From assembly GCA_964418185.1 (NCBI GenBank), contig CAYQKL010000003.1, positions 173-64,172 on the forward strand: 64,000 bases of DNA, given 5' to 3'. The position numbers and the translations under genes are program-made. Within the stretch, counting starts at the first letter, position 1, and each line of letters starts with the position of its first letter. The notes beneath the pieces were generated by a model, which saw only the letters and a program-made list of their open reading frames with translations, was not told the DNA's origin and made no database searches. Source of the stretch: an uncultured bacterium. Its GTDB lineage: Bacteria; Hydrothermota; Tepidihabitantia; SM23-42; JAOAFX01. Below, in pieces: positions 9,407-61,762 of this stretch.

Positions 9407-9865
9407 TCAATACTCTGCGGCATAAACTCTGTAATAATCCTTTTGTTTTTTAAAATATCCTTTTACTGAAGAAGGTTGTATCACACCACCAAATACGAGC
9501 ACCTTTTCATTCTCATATCTTGCAATCACCCTCAATCCAAGACTGCAGTGGGCAAAAATCGTATTATTTTTTGTTGAATCAATCCATACTTTTAATCCTG
9601 ACATCATTATATTTATTGAATCAGCTGATCTAAAAAATTCCTCAACCATTGAGCACAAATCATTAAAATTGAGAGAATGCTTGTCGAGATAATCTTTATC
9701 AAAATAATCAAGGGTCTTATTAATGTTTTCTTTTTCCACCGCATCTTTTAGACTGTTTATATCCCTTAATAAATTTCTTTTTTCGTTCGGCAATAATCTA
9801 ACGATCATAAAGACAATAATGATTAAGGCAGCAAAGATTACGACTATTTTAAAAATTTTTTTCAT
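9407..9865 (-). CDS. Hypothetical membrane-anchored protein
   Basis: N-terminal TM anchor and no recognisable domain. Translationally coupled between the thioredoxin/DsbD-like gene and the CPBP protease. Confidence 0.45.
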   Translation of the reverse strand: MKKIFKIVVIFAALIIIVFMIVRLLPNEKRNLLRDINSLKDAVEKENINKTLDYFDKDYLDKHSLNFNDLCSMVEEFFRSADSINIMMSGLKVWIDSTKNNTIFAHCSLGLRVIARYENEKVLVFGGVIQPSSVKGYFKKQKDYYRVYAAEY

Positions 9866-11558: not shown

Positions 11559-12968
11559 TTGACTGTTTTCCATTTCTGGCTATTATTTTTTGTGGAAATC
11601 ACCTTTATTGGTGCAACCAGAACAGTTACCGGGTCAATGCATCTATTTGAATACAATAAGAAAGAGTTTCTTTTTGAGTGTGGTCTTTATCAGGGGCATC
11701 GGGCAGAAGCAGAAAGGATAAATAGAATATTTCCCTTCAAACCAAAGGAGATAGAGTTTGTAATCCTTTCCCATGCCCATCTTGACCATTCAGGAAATCT
11801 CCCTTCCCTGATAAAAAGAAATTTTCGTGGGGATATCTATTGCACTCCAGCAACCAGAGACATCGCTGAACTACTGCTTCTTGACTCAGCACACCTCCAG
11901 GAGAATGACATTGCATTCTTTAATAAAAAACAGCGCAAGGCAGGACTTCCTACAAAGGAGCCTTTATATACAGTTGAAGATGCAGAGGATACATTAAAAT
12001 ATTTTAAGACCATCAATTACCACAATAAGTTTGAACCAGTTGATGGACTATCAGTGATTTTCTATGACGCAGGCCATATCCTTGGATCAGCCCAGATCTT
12101 GATTGAATATGACGACAGAAGAATTCTTTTCACCGGAGACCTCGGCAGGAATAATATGCCTATAATCAGGGATCCAGAGATACCAGAGGATATTGACTAT
12201 TTGATTTTGGAATCCACATACGGAAGTAGAATTCACAGTTCATTTGAACAGATGACCGATGAATTGAAACGGATAATCCTTGAAGGTAAAGAGAAGAAGA
12301 GCAAGATAATAATACCAACATTTGCCGTGGAAAGAACCCAGGTTCTTGTGACAATGTTAAAGCGACTCTATGAAGATGGGGTTATAAAGAATATTCCGAT
12401 ATATATTGATAGCCCACTCGCAACGAGTGTCACTCAGGTCTTTACCCGACATCCAGAGTGTTTTGATGAAGAGACTTACAAGAAATTCATAAAAGACGAA
12501 CCATTTGATTTTTCTGGGATAAATTATATAAAAAATATAGAAGAGTCAAAATCCCTGAACGAAAAAGATGGCCCGATGATTATCATCTCTGCATCAGGGA
12601 TGTGTGAAGGCGGCAGGGTATTACACCATCTCATACATTCCATAGAAGACGAGAATAATATAATCATTCTCACCGGATTCCAGGCATCAGGCACCTTAGG
12701 CAGAAAGATTCTTGATGGTTATAAGGAAGTTTTCATCTTTGATACAAAATTCTATGTGAATGCAAAGATCTATTTTATGGCAGGACTCTCTGCCCATGCA
12801 GACAGCAATGATCTGATTGAATTTGTACGGTCAATAAAAAATGGGCGTTTGAAAAAAGTCTTTTTAATCCACGGTGAGATCACTGAAGCAGTGGCATTGA
12901 AAGAAAAAATAGAATCCCTAAATATAGAGACCGAAATTCCCGAATCAATGACGAGTGTGGTCTTATGA
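11559..12968 (+). CDS. MBL-fold metallo-hydrolase with beta-CASP/RNA-specificity domain (RNase J-like ribonuclease)
   Basis: HAHLDHSGNLP (HxHxDH), a beta-CASP region and the C-terminal RMBL motif GLSAHAD. The true start may be the GTG at 11592, where homology begins (EITFIGA). Confidence 0.75.
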   Translation: MTVFHFWLLFFVEITFIGATRTVTGSMHLFEYNKKEFLFECGLYQGHRAEAERINRIFPFKPKEIEFVILSHAHLDHSGNLPSLIKRNFRGDIYCTPATRDIAELLLLDSAHLQENDIAFFNKKQRKAGLPTKEPLYTVEDAEDTLKYFKTINYHNKFEPVDGLSVIFYDAGHILGSAQILIEYDDRRILFTGDLGRNNMPIIRDPEIPEDIDYLILESTYGSRIHSSFEQMTDELKRIILEGKEKKSKIIIPTFAVERTQVLVTMLKRLYEDGVIKNIPIYIDSPLATSVTQVFTRHPECFDEETYKKFIKDEPFDFSGINYIKNIEESKSLNEKDGPMIIISASGMCEGGRVLHHLIHSIEDENNIIILTGFQASGTLGRKILDGYKEVFIFDTKFYVNAKIYFMAGLSAHADSNDLIEFVRSIKNGRLKKVFLIHGEITEAVALKEKIESLNIETEIPESMTSVVL

Positions 12969-13636
12969 AAAAAAGGATAGTTGTAATAGAAGACGACCAG
13001 GCGATACTTGATTTAGTAATTTATAATCTACAAAAGAATGGCTTTCTGACTCAAGGATTTACCAATGGTTATGATGGGTTAAATTTTCTTCTAAAAAATC
13101 CCTCAGACCTGCTGATACTGGATTTAATGCTTCCAGATATTGATGGATTTGAACTCTGCAAAGAATTAAAGAACCAGGAGAAGACAAAAAGTCTACCGAT
13201 AATCATACTCACTGCAAAGACTGAAGAGGCAGACAGGATTCTTGGTCTGGAATTAGGTGCAGACGACTATATTATAAAACCATTCAGCCCAAGGGAACTT
13301 GTGGCAAGGGTTAAGGCAGTATTGCGCCGATTGAAAACAACCGAATCAGAAGAATTATATAGATTTCAGGAGCTAACCGTTGATCCAAATAAATACAAAG
13401 TTTATTTCAAACAGCAGGAGATTGAGTTGACTGCAACTGAATTCAGCATTCTTCTTAATTTGATAAAACATCCAGGTAGGGTTTATACAAGGGATAACCT
13501 TCTTGATGCCCTTGACAAAACAATCCTTGACCGTAATATTGATGTCCATATCACAAACTTGAGAAAAAAACTCGGACCTGGGGGCAGGTTTATTAAGACG
13601 ATCAGGAGTGTTGGTTATAAACTGGATGCAGAATGA
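12965..13636 (+). CDS. OmpR/PhoB-family response regulator (receiver + winged helix)
   Basis: Receiver-domain residues D..D..K followed by a C-terminal winged helix. In an operon with a PhoR-like kinase, and pst genes lie in the same window. Confidence 0.85.
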   Translation: MKKRIVVIEDDQAILDLVIYNLQKNGFLTQGFTNGYDGLNFLLKNPSDLLILDLMLPDIDGFELCKELKNQEKTKSLPIIILTAKTEEADRILGLELGADDYIIKPFSPRELVARVKAVLRRLKTTESEELYRFQELTVDPNKYKVYFKQQEIELTATEFSILLNLIKHPGRVYTRDNLLDALDKTILDRNIDVHITNLRKKLGPGGRFIKTIRSVGYKLDAE

Positions 13637-15038: not shown

Positions 15039-15485
15039 TTAATGGAGTAGAATTATCTTATCAGTTTCTGCTCTACCATCAAATTCAACCCGCACAAAAT
15101 ATATACCACTTGGCACTGTCTTACCCCGTTCATCCCTTCCATCCCATATAAAAGTAAAATCACCTGATGACTTCGCTTCTTTTATCATCCGGATAAGCTG
15201 TCCTGTAACAGAATAAATTTTGAGTGAAAACTCGCCTGGTTTCGGAAATTGATAACGAAGTTCAACCATTCCTTGGGCTGGATTGGGTAAGACAAAAGTT
15301 GAAAATCTTTGAGATACTATATTACGTTGCTCCTTAATGGATGAACTTGAATGATTATCCGTAGAAAATTCCCAAACTGCAAAGGCAGATAGAACAACCT
15401 TAGGAAAAGAGAGACGTCTTATACTCAATTCAATCTCCCCATTTTGATAAGCTTCCGGGCTCACAAAAAACCTCTCAACTACCAT
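15039..15485 (-). CDS. Fragment 3 of a secreted multidomain protein: linker + T9SS C-terminal sorting domain (Por_Secre_tail)
   Basis: CTD signature FVLPNPAQGMVELRYQF...IYSVTGQLIRMI...WDGRDERGKTVPSGIYFVRVEF..KIILLH. It is in frame with the upstream ORF across a single TAA at 15546-15548. Confidence 0.7.
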   Translation of the reverse strand: MVVERFFVSPEAYQNGEIELSIRRLSFPKVVLSAFAVWEFSTDNHSSSSIKEQRNIVSQRFSTFVLPNPAQGMVELRYQFPKPGEFSLKIYSVTGQLIRMIKEAKSSGDFTFIWDGRDERGKTVPSGIYFVRVEFDGRAETDKIILLH

Positions 15486-15545
15486 CTTTCTCCGTGGTAA
15501 ATTGACAGTTTTTATCAGCGAGTCATCGATCGCAATATCTTGGTT

Positions 15546-17078
15546 TTAGATTCCATTACTCTCATTCTGATAAAAGACTAAACCAACCTGATAATTCTTC
15601 TTTGGGTCTAATCCAGTAATTCTATACTTCAGACAATTGGTATCATAGTCAACATTCTTTTCAAAACCAGAGCCGTAGATAATATAGCCAGTTCGCTTTT
15701 CCACAAATACCGTGGGTTCTTTTTCACCTAAATCAAAGGCATATAAAGGAATTGGATTTGAACGGAATGAAGAAACAGGAAAGATTTTAATTTCGTATAT
15801 CCAGCTCCAATATTTCCCATTGGTGTAATAGGTCTGGATTTTTGTATATGAAGGATACCATCGCTCCCAGATGAGATGAATTAAATCACCAGCAACACTC
15901 AAAGAGGGATTCTTCCCAACCCCTACTTGAAATGGTGTTGTCCAATTGCCAAGATTATCCCGCTGCAAATACATTATTGCTCCATTTTTCTCATAAACAA
16001 TATGCAGACTACGGTCTGAAGATTTAATCCCAATTGGACCGATACCATAACCAACATAAGTATCAAGGTCTATAACATTCTCCAGACTTTCTGGCATTGT
16101 TTGGGTATAGAATTTACCAATCTTTAGTTTATTATTCCCTTCATCGTCATAGGTATTAAAGACCACCCAACCAGTATCAAGCGGGTCAATAGCAAAAGAG
16201 ACAGAGAGAATGGAATCGTGGGTTTCATAGATGACCTCCTCATTCCAGAAATCAGTCCTATTACGAGCATAATTGATTGTGTAGGTCAATGTTTCCTGGG
16301 CAGCAGAATCAGGAACGCCCAATGTGCCTATGTGGCAAACTTTTAGTTTTTTTGTCGAATCTGTATCTATTGCTGGTTGCCAGCCATAATCAATCTTCTT
16401 GGCGTTGGACCAGCTTATTCCATAATCAGTACTTGTGGCACACCAGATAGCTGATTGATTTGTCCAGGCTAAACAACCATTCCCTCCTGGGTCAAATACT
16501 ACCCCCCTTCCAGTATTGACTCCAGTAGCCATTGTACAATTTGAAGAGAAAGGTGGAATCTGACACGTAACAATATCTGAGCGGATACTTTCCTGCCCAC
16601 TGCTTCGCCGTGCCTTTACATAATATGAATAAATTTTGCCTACAGTTACACTATTATCAATATAAGTTGTATCCGGCACATTCCCGGCAATCATCTCATA
16701 ATTATGATTTGGATGGATTCTGCGATAGACATTGTAACCGGTCACACCACTTGCCGGCGAAGAGCCCCAGACCAATTGTACTGACGCCCTTTGTGAACCA
16801 AACTGTATAATTATCATAAATGTTGGTCTGGGACCAAACCCATAATAAGCATCTATTCCGTTATCTATTCCATAAGCGATTTTATCTTTAATTCCACTTA
16901 GATTGTCTTTTAATTGAAACCATTGACCATTAGTCACGGTATCATGTGTGACAAACGCGCCTTCGGCTACGCAAGCAGGACATTTTGCTTTTACTAACAC
17001 TTCGTAATTTTTTTGCTTTAACCCTCGATTATGTGCATGGGGCAAGTTTGAAATCATATTAAACATTTGTGTGTTCAC
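15546..17078 (-). CDS. Fragment 2 of the same gene: C-terminal half of an Amidase_3 domain + FN3-like + BNR/sialidase-like beta-propeller region
   Basis: NRGLKQKNYEVLVKAKCPACVAEGAFVTH matches the C-terminal part of Amidase_3 (RGvKq..f.VL....P.vLvE.gFisN). An FN3-like GVTGYNVYRR follows. Separated from fragment 1 only by an in-frame TAG. Confidence 0.6.
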   Translation of the reverse strand: MNTQMFNMISNLPHAHNRGLKQKNYEVLVKAKCPACVAEGAFVTHDTVTNGQWFQLKDNLSGIKDKIAYGIDNGIDAYYGFGPRPTFMIIIQFGSQRASVQLVWGSSPASGVTGYNVYRRIHPNHNYEMIAGNVPDTTYIDNSVTVGKIYSYYVKARRSSGQESIRSDIVTCQIPPFSSNCTMATGVNTGRGVVFDPGGNGCLAWTNQSAIWCATSTDYGISWSNAKKIDYGWQPAIDTDSTKKLKVCHIGTLGVPDSAAQETLTYTINYARNRTDFWNEEVIYETHDSILSVSFAIDPLDTGWVVFNTYDDEGNNKLKIGKFYTQTMPESLENVIDLDTYVGYGIGPIGIKSSDRSLHIVYEKNGAIMYLQRDNLGNWTTPFQVGVGKNPSLSVAGDLIHLIWERWYPSYTKIQTYYTNGKYWSWIYEIKIFPVSSFRSNPIPLYAFDLGEKEPTVFVEKRTGYIIYGSGFEKNVDYDTNCLKYRITGLDPKKNYQVGLVFYQNESNGI

Positions 17079-17108
17079 TTGATAAGCAAAAATAGAATCC
17101 GCAGTATC

Positions 17109-17504
17109 CTAATACCAAGTTTCAGTTCCATGGGCTGCTCTGCTACTATCTCCATTATTATGAATAGAAACAAGAACATCACAGGTGTCATAATTATTAG
17201 TAGTAGGATTCGGTAGTTCCCCGTTTGCCATTTTTGCCCTGGCTTCTAACGAGAGTTTTGTGGTGTCGGTCAAATCATCAACTCTTGTCATAATAACACT
17301 GTAGCCTAATGTCCATGTTAGATCATCATAACAAACATCAGCAATATAAAGATTGAAATTTTTTTCATAGGGACCATTTACCCCATAATTTTTATTGACA
17401 GCCCCTGGATCTCTACCACCGTGCCCCGGGTCAAGGCATACCTGGATACGACCAGCAAACAATAGATTAAACAAAAGTAGTAATGGAATCAATTTTATTT
17501 TCAT
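17109..17504 (-). CDS. Fragment 1 of the same gene: signal peptide + N-terminal half of N-acetylmuramoyl-L-alanine amidase (Amidase_3)
   Basis: MKIKLIPLLLLFNLLFAG signal peptide. CLDPGHGGRDPGA and SIHNNGDSSRAAHGTETWY match Amidase_3 motifs. RBS AAGGAGG upstream. The ATGA overlap with the upstream PD40 gene indicates translational coupling. Confidence 0.7.
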   Translation of the reverse strand: MKIKLIPLLLLFNLLFAGRIQVCLDPGHGGRDPGAVNKNYGVNGPYEKNFNLYIADVCYDDLTWTLGYSVIMTRVDDLTDTTKLSLEARAKMANGELPNPTTNNYDTCDVLVSIHNNGDSSRAAHGTETWY

Positions 17505-18394
17505 TTTGCCCCCCTCCTTTTCAATCTCAAAATAACACATTCCCTATCGCCACCACCAGTAATAGAATCTGGTATTTCTTTAAATCTTTCTACTACTATG
17601 CTTTTGCCGTCTGGTAACCAGCGCACGAGAATTTCAGGCTGGAGGGTATAGGTAATTTGGGTTTTCCCTGTTCCATCTTTGTTGATAACGAAGACCTCTG
17701 AAGCAAGTGGAGACACCTCAATATGCCCTGATGCTTTCGTAGCAACAATATATGTAAGCATCTTACCGTTAGGTGACCAAGAAAAATTCCAGGGCTCGAA
17801 AAACAATGTGCGGTCAAGCACTTTTGTCTCATTACTTTCAGCGTCGAAAATAGAAAGTACCCAAAAATCCTTGGTTAGACCTTCTGATTCCACATATTTC
17901 CCTGCCAGATAATTCGCTTTTGGAGACCAACAAGCAGAAATCCCAAAAGATGGAGCTGGTTTTAATTCATCAGTTTCAATATTGTAAATATAGGTACCAC
18001 CATACCCATAAACCTGTCTGCCATGAAAAAGTTTCTTTGCTGGAACCCACATACTGAAGGAAAGGAATTTACTGTCTGAAGATAGCTTCATATCATAGCC
18101 ACCCTTAATGAATCTTTTTTCTTTCTTTGTTTTACCATCTTTTAACAAAATTCCATTATCTGGTCCTCTATCACCAACTATTTCAGCAATTAATGAACTA
18201 TCGGGCGAACAGACAGTAAACAGTGTTTTCCCGAACCAGTAATCAAAGCCCTCGCCCTCAATTTCTTTTGTCATCTCCACTGATGCTTTTTCGATTCTCT
18301 CCAGCATCAGGTCTTCTGCCCTTACTCCTTCTAAAAATCCTTGGGCAAAGAGGGGTAAAAGGCTTATTGCGATTAGGGTTATTATGTTTTTCAT
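17501..18394 (-). CDS. Periplasmic PD40/TolB-like beta-propeller protein
   Basis: Signal peptide MKNIITLIAISLLPLFAQG and repeated WSPNGK / WLPDGK blades. The ORF-track start at 18454 looks too long, since an RBS precedes the ATG at 18394. Confidence 0.6.
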   Translation of the reverse strand: MKNIITLIAISLLPLFAQGFLEGVRAEDLMLERIEKASVEMTKEIEGEGFDYWFGKTLFTVCSPDSSLIAEIVGDRGPDNGILLKDGKTKKEKRFIKGGYDMKLSSDSKFLSFSMWVPAKKLFHGRQVYGYGGTYIYNIETDELKPAPSFGISACWSPKANYLAGKYVESEGLTKDFWVLSIFDAESNETKVLDRTLFFEPWNFSWSPNGKMLTYIVATKASGHIEVSPLASEVFVINKDGTGKTQITYTLQPEILVRWLPDGKSIVVERFKEIPDSITGGGDRECVILRLKRRGAK

Positions 18395-18981
18395 TTTGCC
18401 TCCTTTGCTCGGCATTGCCGAGCTTTTAATAAGTTTACCCATTGCCAAAAGCATTTCAATGGGTAATTTAAGAAGATCCTCTTTTGGTGCGGTCGTCTTT
18501 GAAAAGAAATTAATGAACGACTTAATAATCCGCGCAGAGTTATGGTAGGTAGTCGCTGATAATCCCCATCACAAGCATAGCCTATATAGGCAAAATTAAA
18601 AATTTATCAAGTGCAATGCTCAAAACCGCCTGATTTTACAAGGAATTGCGCAATTTCGACTCTTAAAATTGTAGCAAAAATTTGTAGTATATTTTCAAAA
18701 TTTTTTAGAAGCGATATAAAAATGTGGATAACCCCTAAACTTAATTTTGGAAAGACAAAATTTGGTGTCAGAAAGATATTGGCTTATGTTTACTCCCATC
18801 TTCCAACCTTTATTGCTATATCGATATATGTGCATATGTGCAATTGTTCAATGGTGCATAGATAATGTAACCAATCTCCACAAATATAAATTGTAGCAAT
18901 CAATTTGAAAATTCCACAATTGTCGAATTGATGAATAAATAAATTCATTGTCTGTTCTAAATAAAGCCGTAATGAATATAA

Positions 18982-20273
18982 TCATTCCAGATCAAATGGA
19001 ATTGCCCAAGCGGGTAAAAATCTTATCTGACAATTATCTATCTTTTCTACTTTATAGGTGTTCTTTGTTAAGATATAGCCTTTATCTACTGGATTTTCCT
19101 TTATAAATTTCCTGAAGGCATTAGAAATCTTGGGAGACCCACTCCATTTTACCTCAATGGGTATAATTCTATCTTCTCTTCTCAAAAGAAAATCAATCTC
19201 CTCACCTGCCTTTGTTCGCCAGTACCGCAACTCATCCATATCTCCAAGACACTGAAGAAGTGAGACATAAACACCAGATTCTATCAGCAACCCGGAATTA
19301 GCACGGAGTGATAGATTCTGGAATGTTTTCAATGTGTAATTTAAAAATCCAGTGTCAAGAAAGAATAATCTTGGCATCTTTATTATCTCTTTGGCACGAC
19401 TTTTTGCCCAGGGTCTCAATGTTTTTATAATAAAAGTCTCTTCAGGGATTGAAAGATAGCGCATAACCGTATTCCGGGCAATTCCGACTTCCTTGGATAT
19501 CTCAAGGCTTTTTAATAGACCACCATTCTGGGTGGCAAGGAATTCAACAAATGAACTGAATTTGACAAAGCTCTCTTCAGCCACAAGGCTGCGAATCTCT
19601 TTTTCAAGATATGTGGTTTGAATTTCTTTTAGGACCCTTACTTTCATTTCATATTCCGGGGTAAGCGCGACCTTGGGATAACCCCCATAAATAATATATT
19701 CTTCATAAGCAGAATTGATTTGTGAGAGAAAGGGTTCTGGAATTGGTTTACTCTTATATTGTTTTATAATTCTTAGTAACTCTACTCTACTTGTAAATTC
19801 CAGGAATTCCAAAAATGAAAGGGGATACAGAATAAAGACTACCTTCCTACCGGTCAAAGGTTCAGCCATTTTTAATTTCAATTTTACACTTGAAGAGCCA
19901 CTCACAATAAATTTCAATTTCGGGTAATGGTCATGGATATAATTTAAAATACTTGTGCAATTTTCCATATAATGAATCTCATCAAAGAAAACATATGTAG
20001 TTTCTTTACTTTCCTTTCGCCAGCCCATTGCATTGAGATATGAAATAACATCGCGCACAGTCTTCAGTGCATTTCTGATTTCAATATCCTCAAGGTCAAT
20101 AAAATAGGTTATTTTGCCTGCAGACTCAAGTTCTGTCTGAAGCAATCTTAAGACCGATGTTTTACCTACCTGGCGGGCACCGAGAATTACGATTATCTCA
20201 TCCCGCTCAAGCCATTTTTTATCTTTTTGATTATATCCCTATACAAATAGTTTAAACTTTTTGACACTTCCAT
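18982..20273 (-). pseudogene. AAA+ ATPase of the DUF4143 family, interrupted by a -1 frameshift in an A6 tract near the 5' end
   Basis: P-loop GARQVGKT lies upstream of the ORF-track start. The N-terminus MEVSKSLNYLYRDIIKKIK is encoded in another frame starting at ATG 20273 and joins the main frame at the A-run 20215-20220. A TTGACA-N16-TAAAAT promoter sits immediately upstream. Confidence 0.55.
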
Positions 20274-59692: not shown

Positions 59693-61762
59693 GTGCATAA
59701 AATTCTATGGTTCCTTTCTATAATTCCCTTTATGCTCTCGGCACGTGAATGGACTGTAATGGTATATATGGCTGCAGACAATTCATTGAGTGCGCTTGCT
59801 GATTCTGACCTCATTGAGATGAAGGCAATTGGTTCTAATGACAATCTTGCAATCTTTATCCAGGTTGACAGACCAGGTATTGGTGCAAATCGTTATTATG
59901 TAGGAAAAGATACACTATATAAAATTTCAGATATGGGGATCATTGATATGTGTGACTGGCGAACCCTCAGTGATTTTATTGAATCTGGTATCACATACTT
60001 TCCCGCAAGAAGATATTTTCTTATTCTCTGGGATCATGGCACAGGCTGGACCCTTTCACCAAGACGCACATTTGGCAGTGACTGGTCAAGCGGCACAGAA
60101 ATGAGTATTGCCAGTGGCGACCTTAATCGTGCATTGAAAAGTTCTTTTGATGCTACAGGAAAGAAATTGCATATCATCGGTTTTGATGCCTGCAATATGC
60201 AGCAGATTGAAGTCGCCAGTGAAATTGAGAATTATGCAATGGTTTGTATTGCCCCCCAGACAGTCTGGCCCATTAAAGGATATCCTTACGAAAATATTTT
60301 CTATACATTCAGAATCAATCCAGGGATTAACGAAAAAGACCTTGCAAAAAAAATTACCGAGATTTGTAAAGATTACTATTCAATAAGTCAGGCTTCAGCA
60401 ATTTCGGCAATCCATCTTGAAGATTTCAAAAATCTTGAAGAATTGTTAGAGAAAAACCTCAGCGAAATTATGCAAAATTACCCACAATCAGAGATTATTG
60501 ATTTAAGAAATCAGGTGCAGACGGTTTCACTGATAGACCCTGTGCCTGCACCTGAAGATGATTATGTAGACCTCGGTGATTTTCTGCGATTGCTGAATGA
60601 CCATCTTTCAACAAAAGATACAAAGGAACTTATAGATTCTTATAATAAAACAGTCCTCAAATCAGAATCCTGGGGAACCGGCCTAACAGGATTGACTGGC
60701 ATCACAACCTGGTTTCCAGACCGATATATTGAATTTAAAAATCTTGTGGATTATTATCTACAATTGGACTATGCCCAATCAAACTGGCAGACCTTTCTAA
60801 ACTGGTTCTATGACCAGGATGATATCAGACCAACCACATCACAAATCAATGTAGGCACTCCTGGTAAAGATAACGACTTCCATCTCTTCTGGACAAAATC
60901 CTTTGACCTTGCTTTAGTTCTTTATGACATCTTAGAATGCACCGACACACTTCTATTATTCCAGGATGGTTGTGAGGATTCGGCAAACTGGTTATTCAAT
61001 GGATTTTCCCTGGTTAAAAACATCGCATACCAGGGCAATGGTTCTTTCTTCTCAGGAAACAGCAGCAATCTACAAAATTCTTTAATCACAAAAAACAATT
61101 TCAAAATTGATAACCTTGGTCTGCTTGATTTCTATATCTATTACAATACTGAAGATATGGCAGACTCCCTGATAATTGAATATGATACTAAAAAATCTAT
61201 CTACTATGGCAGATCAGGCACCTGGCAACACTGCCGGATTATTTTACCATCAGGCAATGCCCCGTTGAAAATCTATTATCATACAAATACCAGTATAAAT
61301 AATGGTGGTGCATATATAGATGCGATAAAATTATACAATCTGATTTCAGGAAAATATGTCCGCAAAGGTTGTCCTGATACCACAATCTATGTGTTCAATA
61401 AATTGAGCGGGTTTTATAATTATGGCGTGTGTGCCCGGGATATCTATAACAACGAAAGCAATCTATCAAATTTTGTGAACATTGTTATAAGTAACCATGC
61501 AGTTCCTTATTCTATACCCAATCCATTCACTGAGACCTGTGAGATAATCCTTGACTATCCTGACGATATAAGTCCTGAAGTTTACATCTATTCAATCGGT
61601 GGCAGACTCGTAAGAAAATTCTCTTATTCAGCAATAAAGAACAAAAAAATCTTCTGGGATGGAAAGGATAATAACAACCAGCAGGTTGGTGCTGGTCTAT
61701 ATTTTGTTGTTGTTAAAGGCAAAAATTTTAACATAATTGGAAAGATAGCGAGGCAGAGATGA
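59693..61762 (+). CDS. Secreted clostripain-family (C11) cysteine peptidase with a T9SS C-terminal sorting domain
   Basis: Signal peptide. WTVMVYMAADNSL, catalytic His in LILWDHGTGW and Cys in IIGFDACNMQ. C-terminal CTD IYSIGGRLVRKF...WDGKDNNNQQVGAGLYFVVVKG. Confidence 0.7.
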   Translation: MHKILWFLSIIPFMLSAREWTVMVYMAADNSLSALADSDLIEMKAIGSNDNLAIFIQVDRPGIGANRYYVGKDTLYKISDMGIIDMCDWRTLSDFIESGITYFPARRYFLILWDHGTGWTLSPRRTFGSDWSSGTEMSIASGDLNRALKSSFDATGKKLHIIGFDACNMQQIEVASEIENYAMVCIAPQTVWPIKGYPYENIFYTFRINPGINEKDLAKKITEICKDYYSISQASAISAIHLEDFKNLEELLEKNLSEIMQNYPQSEIIDLRNQVQTVSLIDPVPAPEDDYVDLGDFLRLLNDHLSTKDTKELIDSYNKTVLKSESWGTGLTGLTGITTWFPDRYIEFKNLVDYYLQLDYAQSNWQTFLNWFYDQDDIRPTTSQINVGTPGKDNDFHLFWTKSFDLALVLYDILECTDTLLLFQDGCEDSANWLFNGFSLVKNIAYQGNGSFFSGNSSNLQNSLITKNNFKIDNLGLLDFYIYYNTEDMADSLIIEYDTKKSIYYGRSGTWQHCRIILPSGNAPLKIYYHTNTSINNGGAYIDAIKLYNLISGKYVRKGCPDTTIYVFNKLSGFYNYGVCARDIYNNESNLSNFVNIVISNHAVPYSIPNPFTETCEIILDYPDDISPEVYIYSIGGRLVRKFSYSAIKNKKIFWDGKDNNNQQVGAGLYFVVVKGKNFNIIGKIARQR

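Follow-up and report, generated by a model that had tools for sequence, protein, structure and literature searches.

We analyzed a 64,000-nt stretch of DNA (hereafter, the window) from contig CAYQKL010000003.1, which belongs to a metagenome-assembled genome (MAG) of an uncultured WOR-3-group bacterium, and focused on a gene for a secreted peptidoglycan amidase that contains two in-frame stop codons. The gene lies on the minus strand at 15039-17504, and its conceptual translation gives a single frame of 822 codons, with a TAG at codon 132 (17109-17111), a TAA at codon 653 (15546-15548) and the true stop, also a TAA, at 15039-15041. The initial annotation of this DNA had described three minus-strand open reading frames (ORFs) sharing one frame and interrupted by TAG and TAA. 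Translation confirmed this arrangement, as well as the distance of exactly 60 nt that it had given between the internal TAA and the next ATG, at 15485. The first fragment (17109-17504) comprises a signal peptide (17451-17504) and the first 131 amidase codons, and ends at the TAG. The third (15039-15545) holds a beta-sandwich region and a type A sorting domain of the type IX secretion system (T9SS), at 15051-15290. When we scanned the six frames of the 64 kb for pairs of open frames of at least 100 codons with one stop between them, one further pair was found, at 9407, corresponding to two separate genes with their own start each. Since this is the only other such pair in the window, the split of the amidase gene is genuine and not due to chance.

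Upstream of the amidase gene, on the same strand, lies an intact PD40 gene (17501-18394), which codes for 297 aa from an ATG at 18394, the longest ORF reaching 18454. A GGAGG is found at 17513-17517, ahead of the amidase ATG (17504), and this ATG shares the tetranucleotide ATGA (17501-17504) with the TGA of the PD40 gene, which bears out the previously noted ATGA coupling to an intact upstream gene. The PD40 protein has a signal peptide, and its AlphaFold2 model (pLDDT 88.7) presents a TolB-like propeller, with the propellers of TolB and DPP-IV as best fold matches in the PDB. Judging from the sequence, the amidase gene would be co-transcribed and translationally coupled with this upstream gene for a secreted TolB-like PD40 propeller.

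We then examined the domains of the conceptual read-through protein. The Pfam profile Amidase_3 (PF01520) matched residues 22-215 (16860-17441) over its entire length (positions 1-174 of 174) with 99.2 bits, against a gathering score of 27, in one stretch that crosses the TAG. This domain aligns end to end with the solved structures 4RN7 (E 7.7e-17) and 1JWQ (E 1.3e-12), and its motifs DPGHGG, PYE, SIHNN and AEGAF are in register with those of solved Amidase_3 enzymes. In the orthologue alignment, H28, E47, H115 and E181 show either no variation or conservation of at least 90%, and they align with the CwlV motifs DAGHG, YEK, SIHAN and LLEVG. From what is known of the family, we take H28, E47 and H115 to be the putative zinc ligands and E181 to be the catalytic Glu. 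Codon 132, the TAG, separates H115 from E181, so a complete catalytic domain is not found on one polypeptide. At the other end of the protein, residues 739-818 match both TIGR04183 (35.2 bits, cut-off 23) and PF18962 (29 bits, cut-off 27), and the T9SS C-terminal sorting domain proposed initially is hence above the curated cut-offs of the two families. The homology was said to run straight across the stops, and it does, with one full-length Amidase_3 match across the TAG and the T9SS domain past the TAA. The signal peptide (MKIKLIPLLLLFNLLFAG) sits on the 131-aa fragment, and the sorting domain on the 148-aa ORF, beyond two stops.

Regarding the central part of the protein, the initial annotation had labeled it as FN3 and BNR, and the profile searches did not support these labels. 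The fn3 profile (PF00041) gave 17.6 bits (E 0.0045), below the Pfam gathering score of 25, in the region of an FN3-like beta-sandwich at residues 237-311 (16572-16796), and no BNR family appeared among the Pfam matches with E up to 0.1. According to the orthologue alignment and the model of an orthologue, the region at 15549-16547 would be the remnant of a central beta-propeller of sialidase-like fold. A single Asp-box, STDYGISW, is visible in it by eye, and the orthologue alignment shows the propeller to be the most conserved part of the amidase family.

To find orthologues we searched the protein against a database of ~5.8 billion protein clusters. We retrieved uninterrupted ORFs of 893-917 aa from WOR-3-group MAGs, with 41-67% identity along the whole length, together with a shorter subfamily of 750-784 aa. 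Among the intact orthologues are P0002 (904 aa, annotated as ‘MAG: N-acetylmuramoyl-L-alanine amidase [candidate division WOR-3 bacterium]’), P0005-P0008 and P0010-P0012. In every locus fetched, the amidase gene is preceded by a PD40/Tricorn-like gene of ~300 aa, often with the same 4-nt overlap, which is present in the window and in the orthologous loci L003, L004 and L005. Three naturally separate genes can be rejected, given that the orthologues are single ORFs. The proposal that the three ORFs are pieces of one gene stands, since these single ORFs are located behind the same PD40 gene. A comparison with orthologues had been suggested from the start, and it showed that the relatives carry one gene, with TGG at both stop positions, and not three genes.

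The AlphaFold model of P0002 has a mean pLDDT of 69.9, with block means mostly of ~75-90 over residues ~340-590, with dips. From the N-terminus, it presents an alpha/beta amidase domain, a beta-sandwich, a large all-beta propeller and further beta-sandwiches, with strands in the FN3-like region (about residues 231-313). In Foldseek, its closest matches were FN3-plus-propeller proteins and bacterial sialidases, with E values from 1e-7 to 1e-11. The sialidase matches (1EUT, 8T26, 3H6J and 2W38; E 1e-7 to 1e-10) have a whole-chain TM of only ~0.2, a low value that would be expected for a multi-domain query. The FN3 and BNR labels, which failed in profile searches, are thus plausible at the level of predicted fold. 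The same holds for the likeness to six-bladed sialidase/BNR propellers, which consists of these model matches and one Asp-box, with no Pfam BNR match. According to these results, the intact gene codes for ~905 aa, comprising a signal peptide, Amidase_3, an FN3-like domain, a sialidase-like propeller, a beta-sandwich and a T9SS type A sorting domain.

Comparison with the orthologous loci revealed three lesions in the window copy. At the first site (17109-17111), the three closest relatives (L033, L034 and L035, with 80-82% nucleotide identity) read TGG TTT TGG GAT and the window reads TGG TAT TAG GAT, so the TAG would be one G-to-A change away from TGG (Trp); more distant orthologues have TAT, TAC or TGG at this position. 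The second lesion is a 252-nt (84-codon) in-frame deletion, located by the orthologue alignment between 15798 and 15797 (...NGKYWSWI / YEIKI...), and it contradicts the initial statement that the gene was split without any indel. It has removed 84 propeller residues that include the nearly invariant motifs WTxPQNISQT, DSKYPQ and WTEGN and that would form about six strands of the propeller predicted in the P0002 model. The segment is kept in every orthologue that covers the region, including L011, L019 and L034, and L011 and L019 are ~90% identical to the window at the nucleotide level on both sides of the gap. Because the relatives keep these 84 residues, the ancestral protein had ~905 aa; the initial annotation was right in proposing one gene, and its length of ~820 aa has to be corrected once the deletion is counted.

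The third lesion is the TAA at 15546-15548. All seven orthologous DNAs examined, and also L034, have TGG (Trp) at this position, from which the TAA would be separated by two G-to-A changes within one codon. Such a double change could have arisen in one event, as a tandem GG-to-AA (CC-to-TT) mutation, or in two, with AT-biased mutation supplying a second, neutral hit. We also observed that a TGG-to-TAA change, with two G-to-A substitutions in one codon, arose twice independently, at codon 653 of the window copy and at position 2647 of L034, and that five of the seven nonsense lesions seen in the amidase family hit Trp codons. The possibility that the lesions are common to close relatives was rejected, as both sites are sense codons in L033-L035, L011 and L019, which also retain the deleted segment as far as their sequences reach over it.

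To date the inactivation, we looked at substitution patterns. At 74 otherwise-invariant columns, the window copy shows no private substitutions (0/74), while other family members show 0 to 16. In comparison with L011 and L019, its lineage-specific codon changes were 24 synonymous and 18 non-synonymous, and the ratio of non-synonymous to synonymous rates (dN/dS) of its lineage was ~0.2, no higher than those of the other two lineages. Against L033-L035, dN/dS was 0.16-0.18 for the amidase gene and 0.14-0.16 for the intact PD40 gene. Because the sequence is well preserved and dN/dS is ~0.17-0.2, the inactivation was recent, and an old pseudogene is rejected by both dN/dS and the intact invariant positions. 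The amidase gene thus appears to have been under purifying selection for nearly all the time since the lineage split and to have been inactivated only recently.

Altogether, we consider it very probable that this locus is a genuine pseudogene, recently formed from a conserved WOR-3-group gene for a T9SS-exported peptidoglycan amidase. The gene would have accumulated three lesions, namely the change from TGG to TAG at codon 132, the 252-nt in-frame deletion in the propeller and the change from TGG to TAA at codon 653. Starting at the native ATG, translation would then give a 131-aa exported stub with the putative zinc ligands and without the catalytic Glu, and the downstream pieces, having no signal peptide, would be unable to reach the T9SS. 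Recent pseudogenization was one of three options offered by the initial annotation, next to the assembly of a mixed population and programmed stop-codon readthrough, and it is the one favored by our data. For annotation purposes, the ORFs of 131/143, 503-510 and 148 aa should be merged as one pseudogene and listed neither as three proteins nor as a stand-alone T9SS cargo. A single pseudogene produced by nonsense mutations and a deletion is of a known, routine kind.

Some points weigh against this interpretation. A well-preserved sequence with low dN/dS would also fit a gene that still functions, but the loss of conserved propeller blades speaks against this. Besides, we infer the absence of an amidase product, and minor intact alleles may exist within the population. 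Finally, the MAG may derive from the same two sequencing runs (SRR10095340 and SRR10095342) as the Logan contigs that we used for comparison, in which case independence concerns assembler and library, and not necessarily the study.

One could also argue that the pieces have been re-used as separate products, either as an exported 131-aa stub or as middle and C-terminal ORFs translated from internal starts. Low dN/dS continues past the first stop, gene callers annotate the pieces as ORFs, and the ATG of the 148-aa ORF (15485) has a GGAG 4 nt upstream. Nevertheless, this GGAG is accounted for by coding, since it encodes the conserved LPRRK motif of the intact orthologues. The stub has only half of the fold and no catalytic Glu, and for the middle ORF neither a ribosome-binding site nor a signal peptide is evident. 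Cargo of the T9SS requires a Sec signal peptide in addition to the C-terminal domain (PMC5445135), and the 148-aa ORF has no signal peptide, so its sorting domain would not be exportable, in line with the initial claim that this domain cannot work as a stand-alone 148-aa cytoplasmic protein. Moreover, the break points differ in every disrupted relative, with no conserved split architecture. We thus regard re-use of the fragments as very unlikely, and recent pseudogenization as the better account of the locus.

It could be asked whether the lesions were introduced by sequencing or assembly, or whether the consensus masks an intact allele that predominates, the gene being in reality intact. The source is a MAG, and a homopolymer frameshift in a neighboring gene (described below) could be a sequencing error. 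However, the Logan assemblies of the two runs (L001 and L002) are 100% identical to the window over 15039-17540, and the exact products of the three amidase ORFs recur in both. Both contigs agree with the window at all positions from 13433 up to their own ends, and their differences from it, 3 and 28, respectively, are confined to 12257-13432. The consensus thus carries the lesions in two libraries, with two assemblers and in slightly different populations, and three assemblies are identical over the gene. Furthermore, they consist of substitutions and a 252-nt deletion, and not of homopolymer errors. The protein database, a scan of GTDB genomes and a scan of JGI metagenomes gave no sense-codon allele of the window lineage closer than ~80% nucleotide identity, and neither the 5.8-billion-cluster database nor the JGI scan contained an intact protein of this lineage. 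On the available data, an assembly artefact is rejected, and the mixed-population option of the initial annotation is not supported; a gene that is in reality intact seems highly improbable.

Programmed readthrough or local recoding would still give a full-length secreted enzyme, and the frame is indeed kept over both stops, with well-conserved sequence downstream and a modest predicted RNA structure ~30 nt past the TAA (z = -2.15, matched by 6 of 200 shuffles). In bacteria, TAA generally shows the least leakage among the stop codons. After the TAG, the RNA has no unusual structure (z = +0.83). The 54 ORFs of the window terminate with TAA (24), TGA (21) or TAG (9), and its tRNAs are those for Lys and Glu only, with no suppressor tRNA within the 64 kb. 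Stop-codon reassignment is rejected, given that all three stops end normal genes, that no suppressor tRNA was seen and that the split is the only one of its kind in the 64 kb. Readthrough, also raised by the initial annotation, is extremely improbable on the same grounds and because the stop positions are not conserved (TGG in relatives), one of the two stops is the little-leaky TAA, the product would still miss 84 conserved propeller residues, and the frameshifts and kilobase deletions of the relatives could not be rescued in this way.

We next turned to the relatives, taking their loci from the genome scan, the metagenome scan and neighborhood look-ups. The initial annotation had missed that the same gene is broken in many of them: it is disrupted in ~15 of ~30 related lineages, and in 9 of 18 when only the two unbiased scans are considered. 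No lesion is common to the window and its relatives, and each relative has a different one. Nonsense codons were found at Trp positions in L011 (TAG, in GWQ), L022 (TGA) and L034 (TAA, together with frameshifts), at a Cys position in L026 (TGA) and at a Gln position in L029/L030 (TAG). Frameshifts were seen in L014 and L035, as well as in L019 (two, one of them a 5-nt deletion), L021 (+1, in a G run) and L025 (-1, in a C run). Regarding larger losses, L033 has lost most of the C-terminal half, L038 has an internal deletion of ~2.3 kb, and L018 and L027 are truncated at the 5' end. The sequence flanking these disrupted loci showed no comparable splits.

The window copy is, consequently, one of many independent inactivations of the amidase gene in related lineages. 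This repetition implies that selection tolerates, or at times favors, amidase loss, while PD40 stays constrained. Recurrent, independent and recent loss of the amidase beside an ever-intact partner is a modestly interesting and testable lead, which could bear on the role of T9SS-exported wall amidases in uncultured bacteria and on why these bacteria so often tolerate, or benefit from, losing them. In a Candidatus Stahlbacteria MAG (L010, 1582-2511, and L018), we observed an orthologue that is missing ~170 codons at its start and is not preceded by a PD40 gene. This orthologue lies immediately downstream of a gene with a weak match to Y1_Tnp (IS200-like transposase), so that a mobile element may have truncated it.

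In every related locus that contains it, the PD40 gene (0.9 kb) is in one frame, with no stop or frameshift. At an equal lesion rate per kb, about five lesions would be expected in it and none was observed (P ~0.005-0.01). PD40 and the amidase domain have common nearest relatives, unlike the rest of the amidase gene. We also found that L006 (4181-5991) has two tandem PD40 paralogues, 66% identical, directly upstream of an intact amidase gene. The fold search with the PD40 protein gave no known immunity protein or inhibitor, and only generic TolB, DPP-IV and WD40 propellers.

As a tentative and rather doubtful idea, drawn by analogy, the PD40-amidase pair might be a module in which an outward-facing, T9SS-exported amidase is accompanied by a periplasmic TolB-like immunity factor, inhibitor or handler, with amidase nulls being favored or tolerated and the partner being kept under selection. 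If this were true, the exported amidase would act in antagonism, predation or necromass scavenging, or would merely be surface-exposed, and nulls could recur through escape from its use as a receptor by phages or predators, through public-good ‘cheating’ or owing to a cost of self-damage. Such a module would explain together the long-term purifying selection, the fresh knock-outs in about half of the lineages and the always-intact partner. Secreted peptidoglycan-amidase effectors with a cognate periplasmic immunity gene are known from the Tae/Tai pairs of the type VI secretion system, and ‘orphan immunity’ genes have been described. The likeness to Tae/Tai would be conceptual, with a secreted wall amidase tightly coupled to a small secreted partner that is kept while the enzyme gene decays. 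In contrast to Tae/Tai, the PD40 partner is located upstream, has ~300 aa and a TolB-like fold, and shows no immunity-protein fold among the listed matches. In the literature, we found no papers on WOR-3 together with type IX secretion, and nothing directly relevant, by title or abstract, on T9SS amidase cargo or T9SS antibacterial effectors.

In order to contextualize the locus, we compared it with known systems. The window copy shares with the intact WOR-3-group orthologues the domain order, the PD40 gene upstream with its 4-nt overlap and 41-67% identity, but those are uninterrupted at 893-917 aa, whereas it has two nonsense codons and lacks 84 propeller residues. Compared with the Amidase_3 enzymes CwlV (1JWQ), CwlD, AmiA/B/C and LytH, its catalytic domain is full-length, with motifs that line up with the solved enzymes; unlike in these, it is broken between the third zinc ligand and the catalytic Glu. 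Those enzymes carry AMIN, LysM or SH3 wall-binding modules, whereas the WOR-3 family has FN3-like, propeller and T9SS sorting domains. As in T9SS type A cargo, such as the gingipains of P. gingivalis or the proteins PorU and PorZ with their C-terminal regions, the original protein combined a sorting domain with an N-terminal signal peptide. Here, however, the host belongs to the WOR-3 group and not to Bacteroidota, and in the window copy two stops separate the sorting domain from the signal peptide.

A second T9SS cargo is encoded in the window, at 59693-61762 on the plus strand. It is a Peptidase_C11 (clostripain-family) protein of 689 aa whose T9SS type A sorting domain is intact (24.2 bits for TIGR04183, cut-off 23), and it lends indirect support to the presence of T9SS machinery in the genome. 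A Peptidase_C11 gene also adjoins the PD40-amidase pair in L033. The other large genes of the window gave full-length family matches, which, together with the intact second cargo, speaks against genome-wide decay or loss of the T9SS, although one neighboring gene does show a homopolymer frameshift. No paralogue able to compensate for the amidase was found within the window.

Next upstream of PD40, at 18982-20273 on the minus strand, is a gene for an AAA_14/DUF4143 ATPase that appears frameshifted, its first 26 codons (from the ATG at 20273) being out of frame. With one A added to the A6 run at 20215-20220, the frames join into one ORF that has the Walker A motif GARQVGKT. The cause may be an error of homopolymer sequencing or, alternatively, a second case of pseudogenization; this region is not covered by the Logan contigs.

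When 15039-18454 was compared with L004, L011, L014, L019, L026 and L033-L035, the locus turned out to be a mosaic of three parts with three sets of nearest relatives. PD40 and the amidase domain are nearest to L004/L022 in protein and to L033-L035 in DNA (80-82%), and the FN3-like domain with the propeller is nearest to L014, L003 and L011. The last ~770 nt (~250 codons) show ~89% DNA identity to L011 and L019, and the amidase domain of L019 is only 43% identical in protein. These patterns suggest that recombination or cassette exchange may have taken place within the amidase gene.

Finally, the 28 differences between the window and L002, the contig from SRR10095342 (12257-13432), all fall within a beta-CASP/RNase-J-like gene (11559-12968) and a response regulator gene (12965-13636), and 19 of them are clustered at 12641-12857. 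The 12257-13432 segment looks like a local recombination tract, or like strain microdiversity, beside an otherwise identical region.

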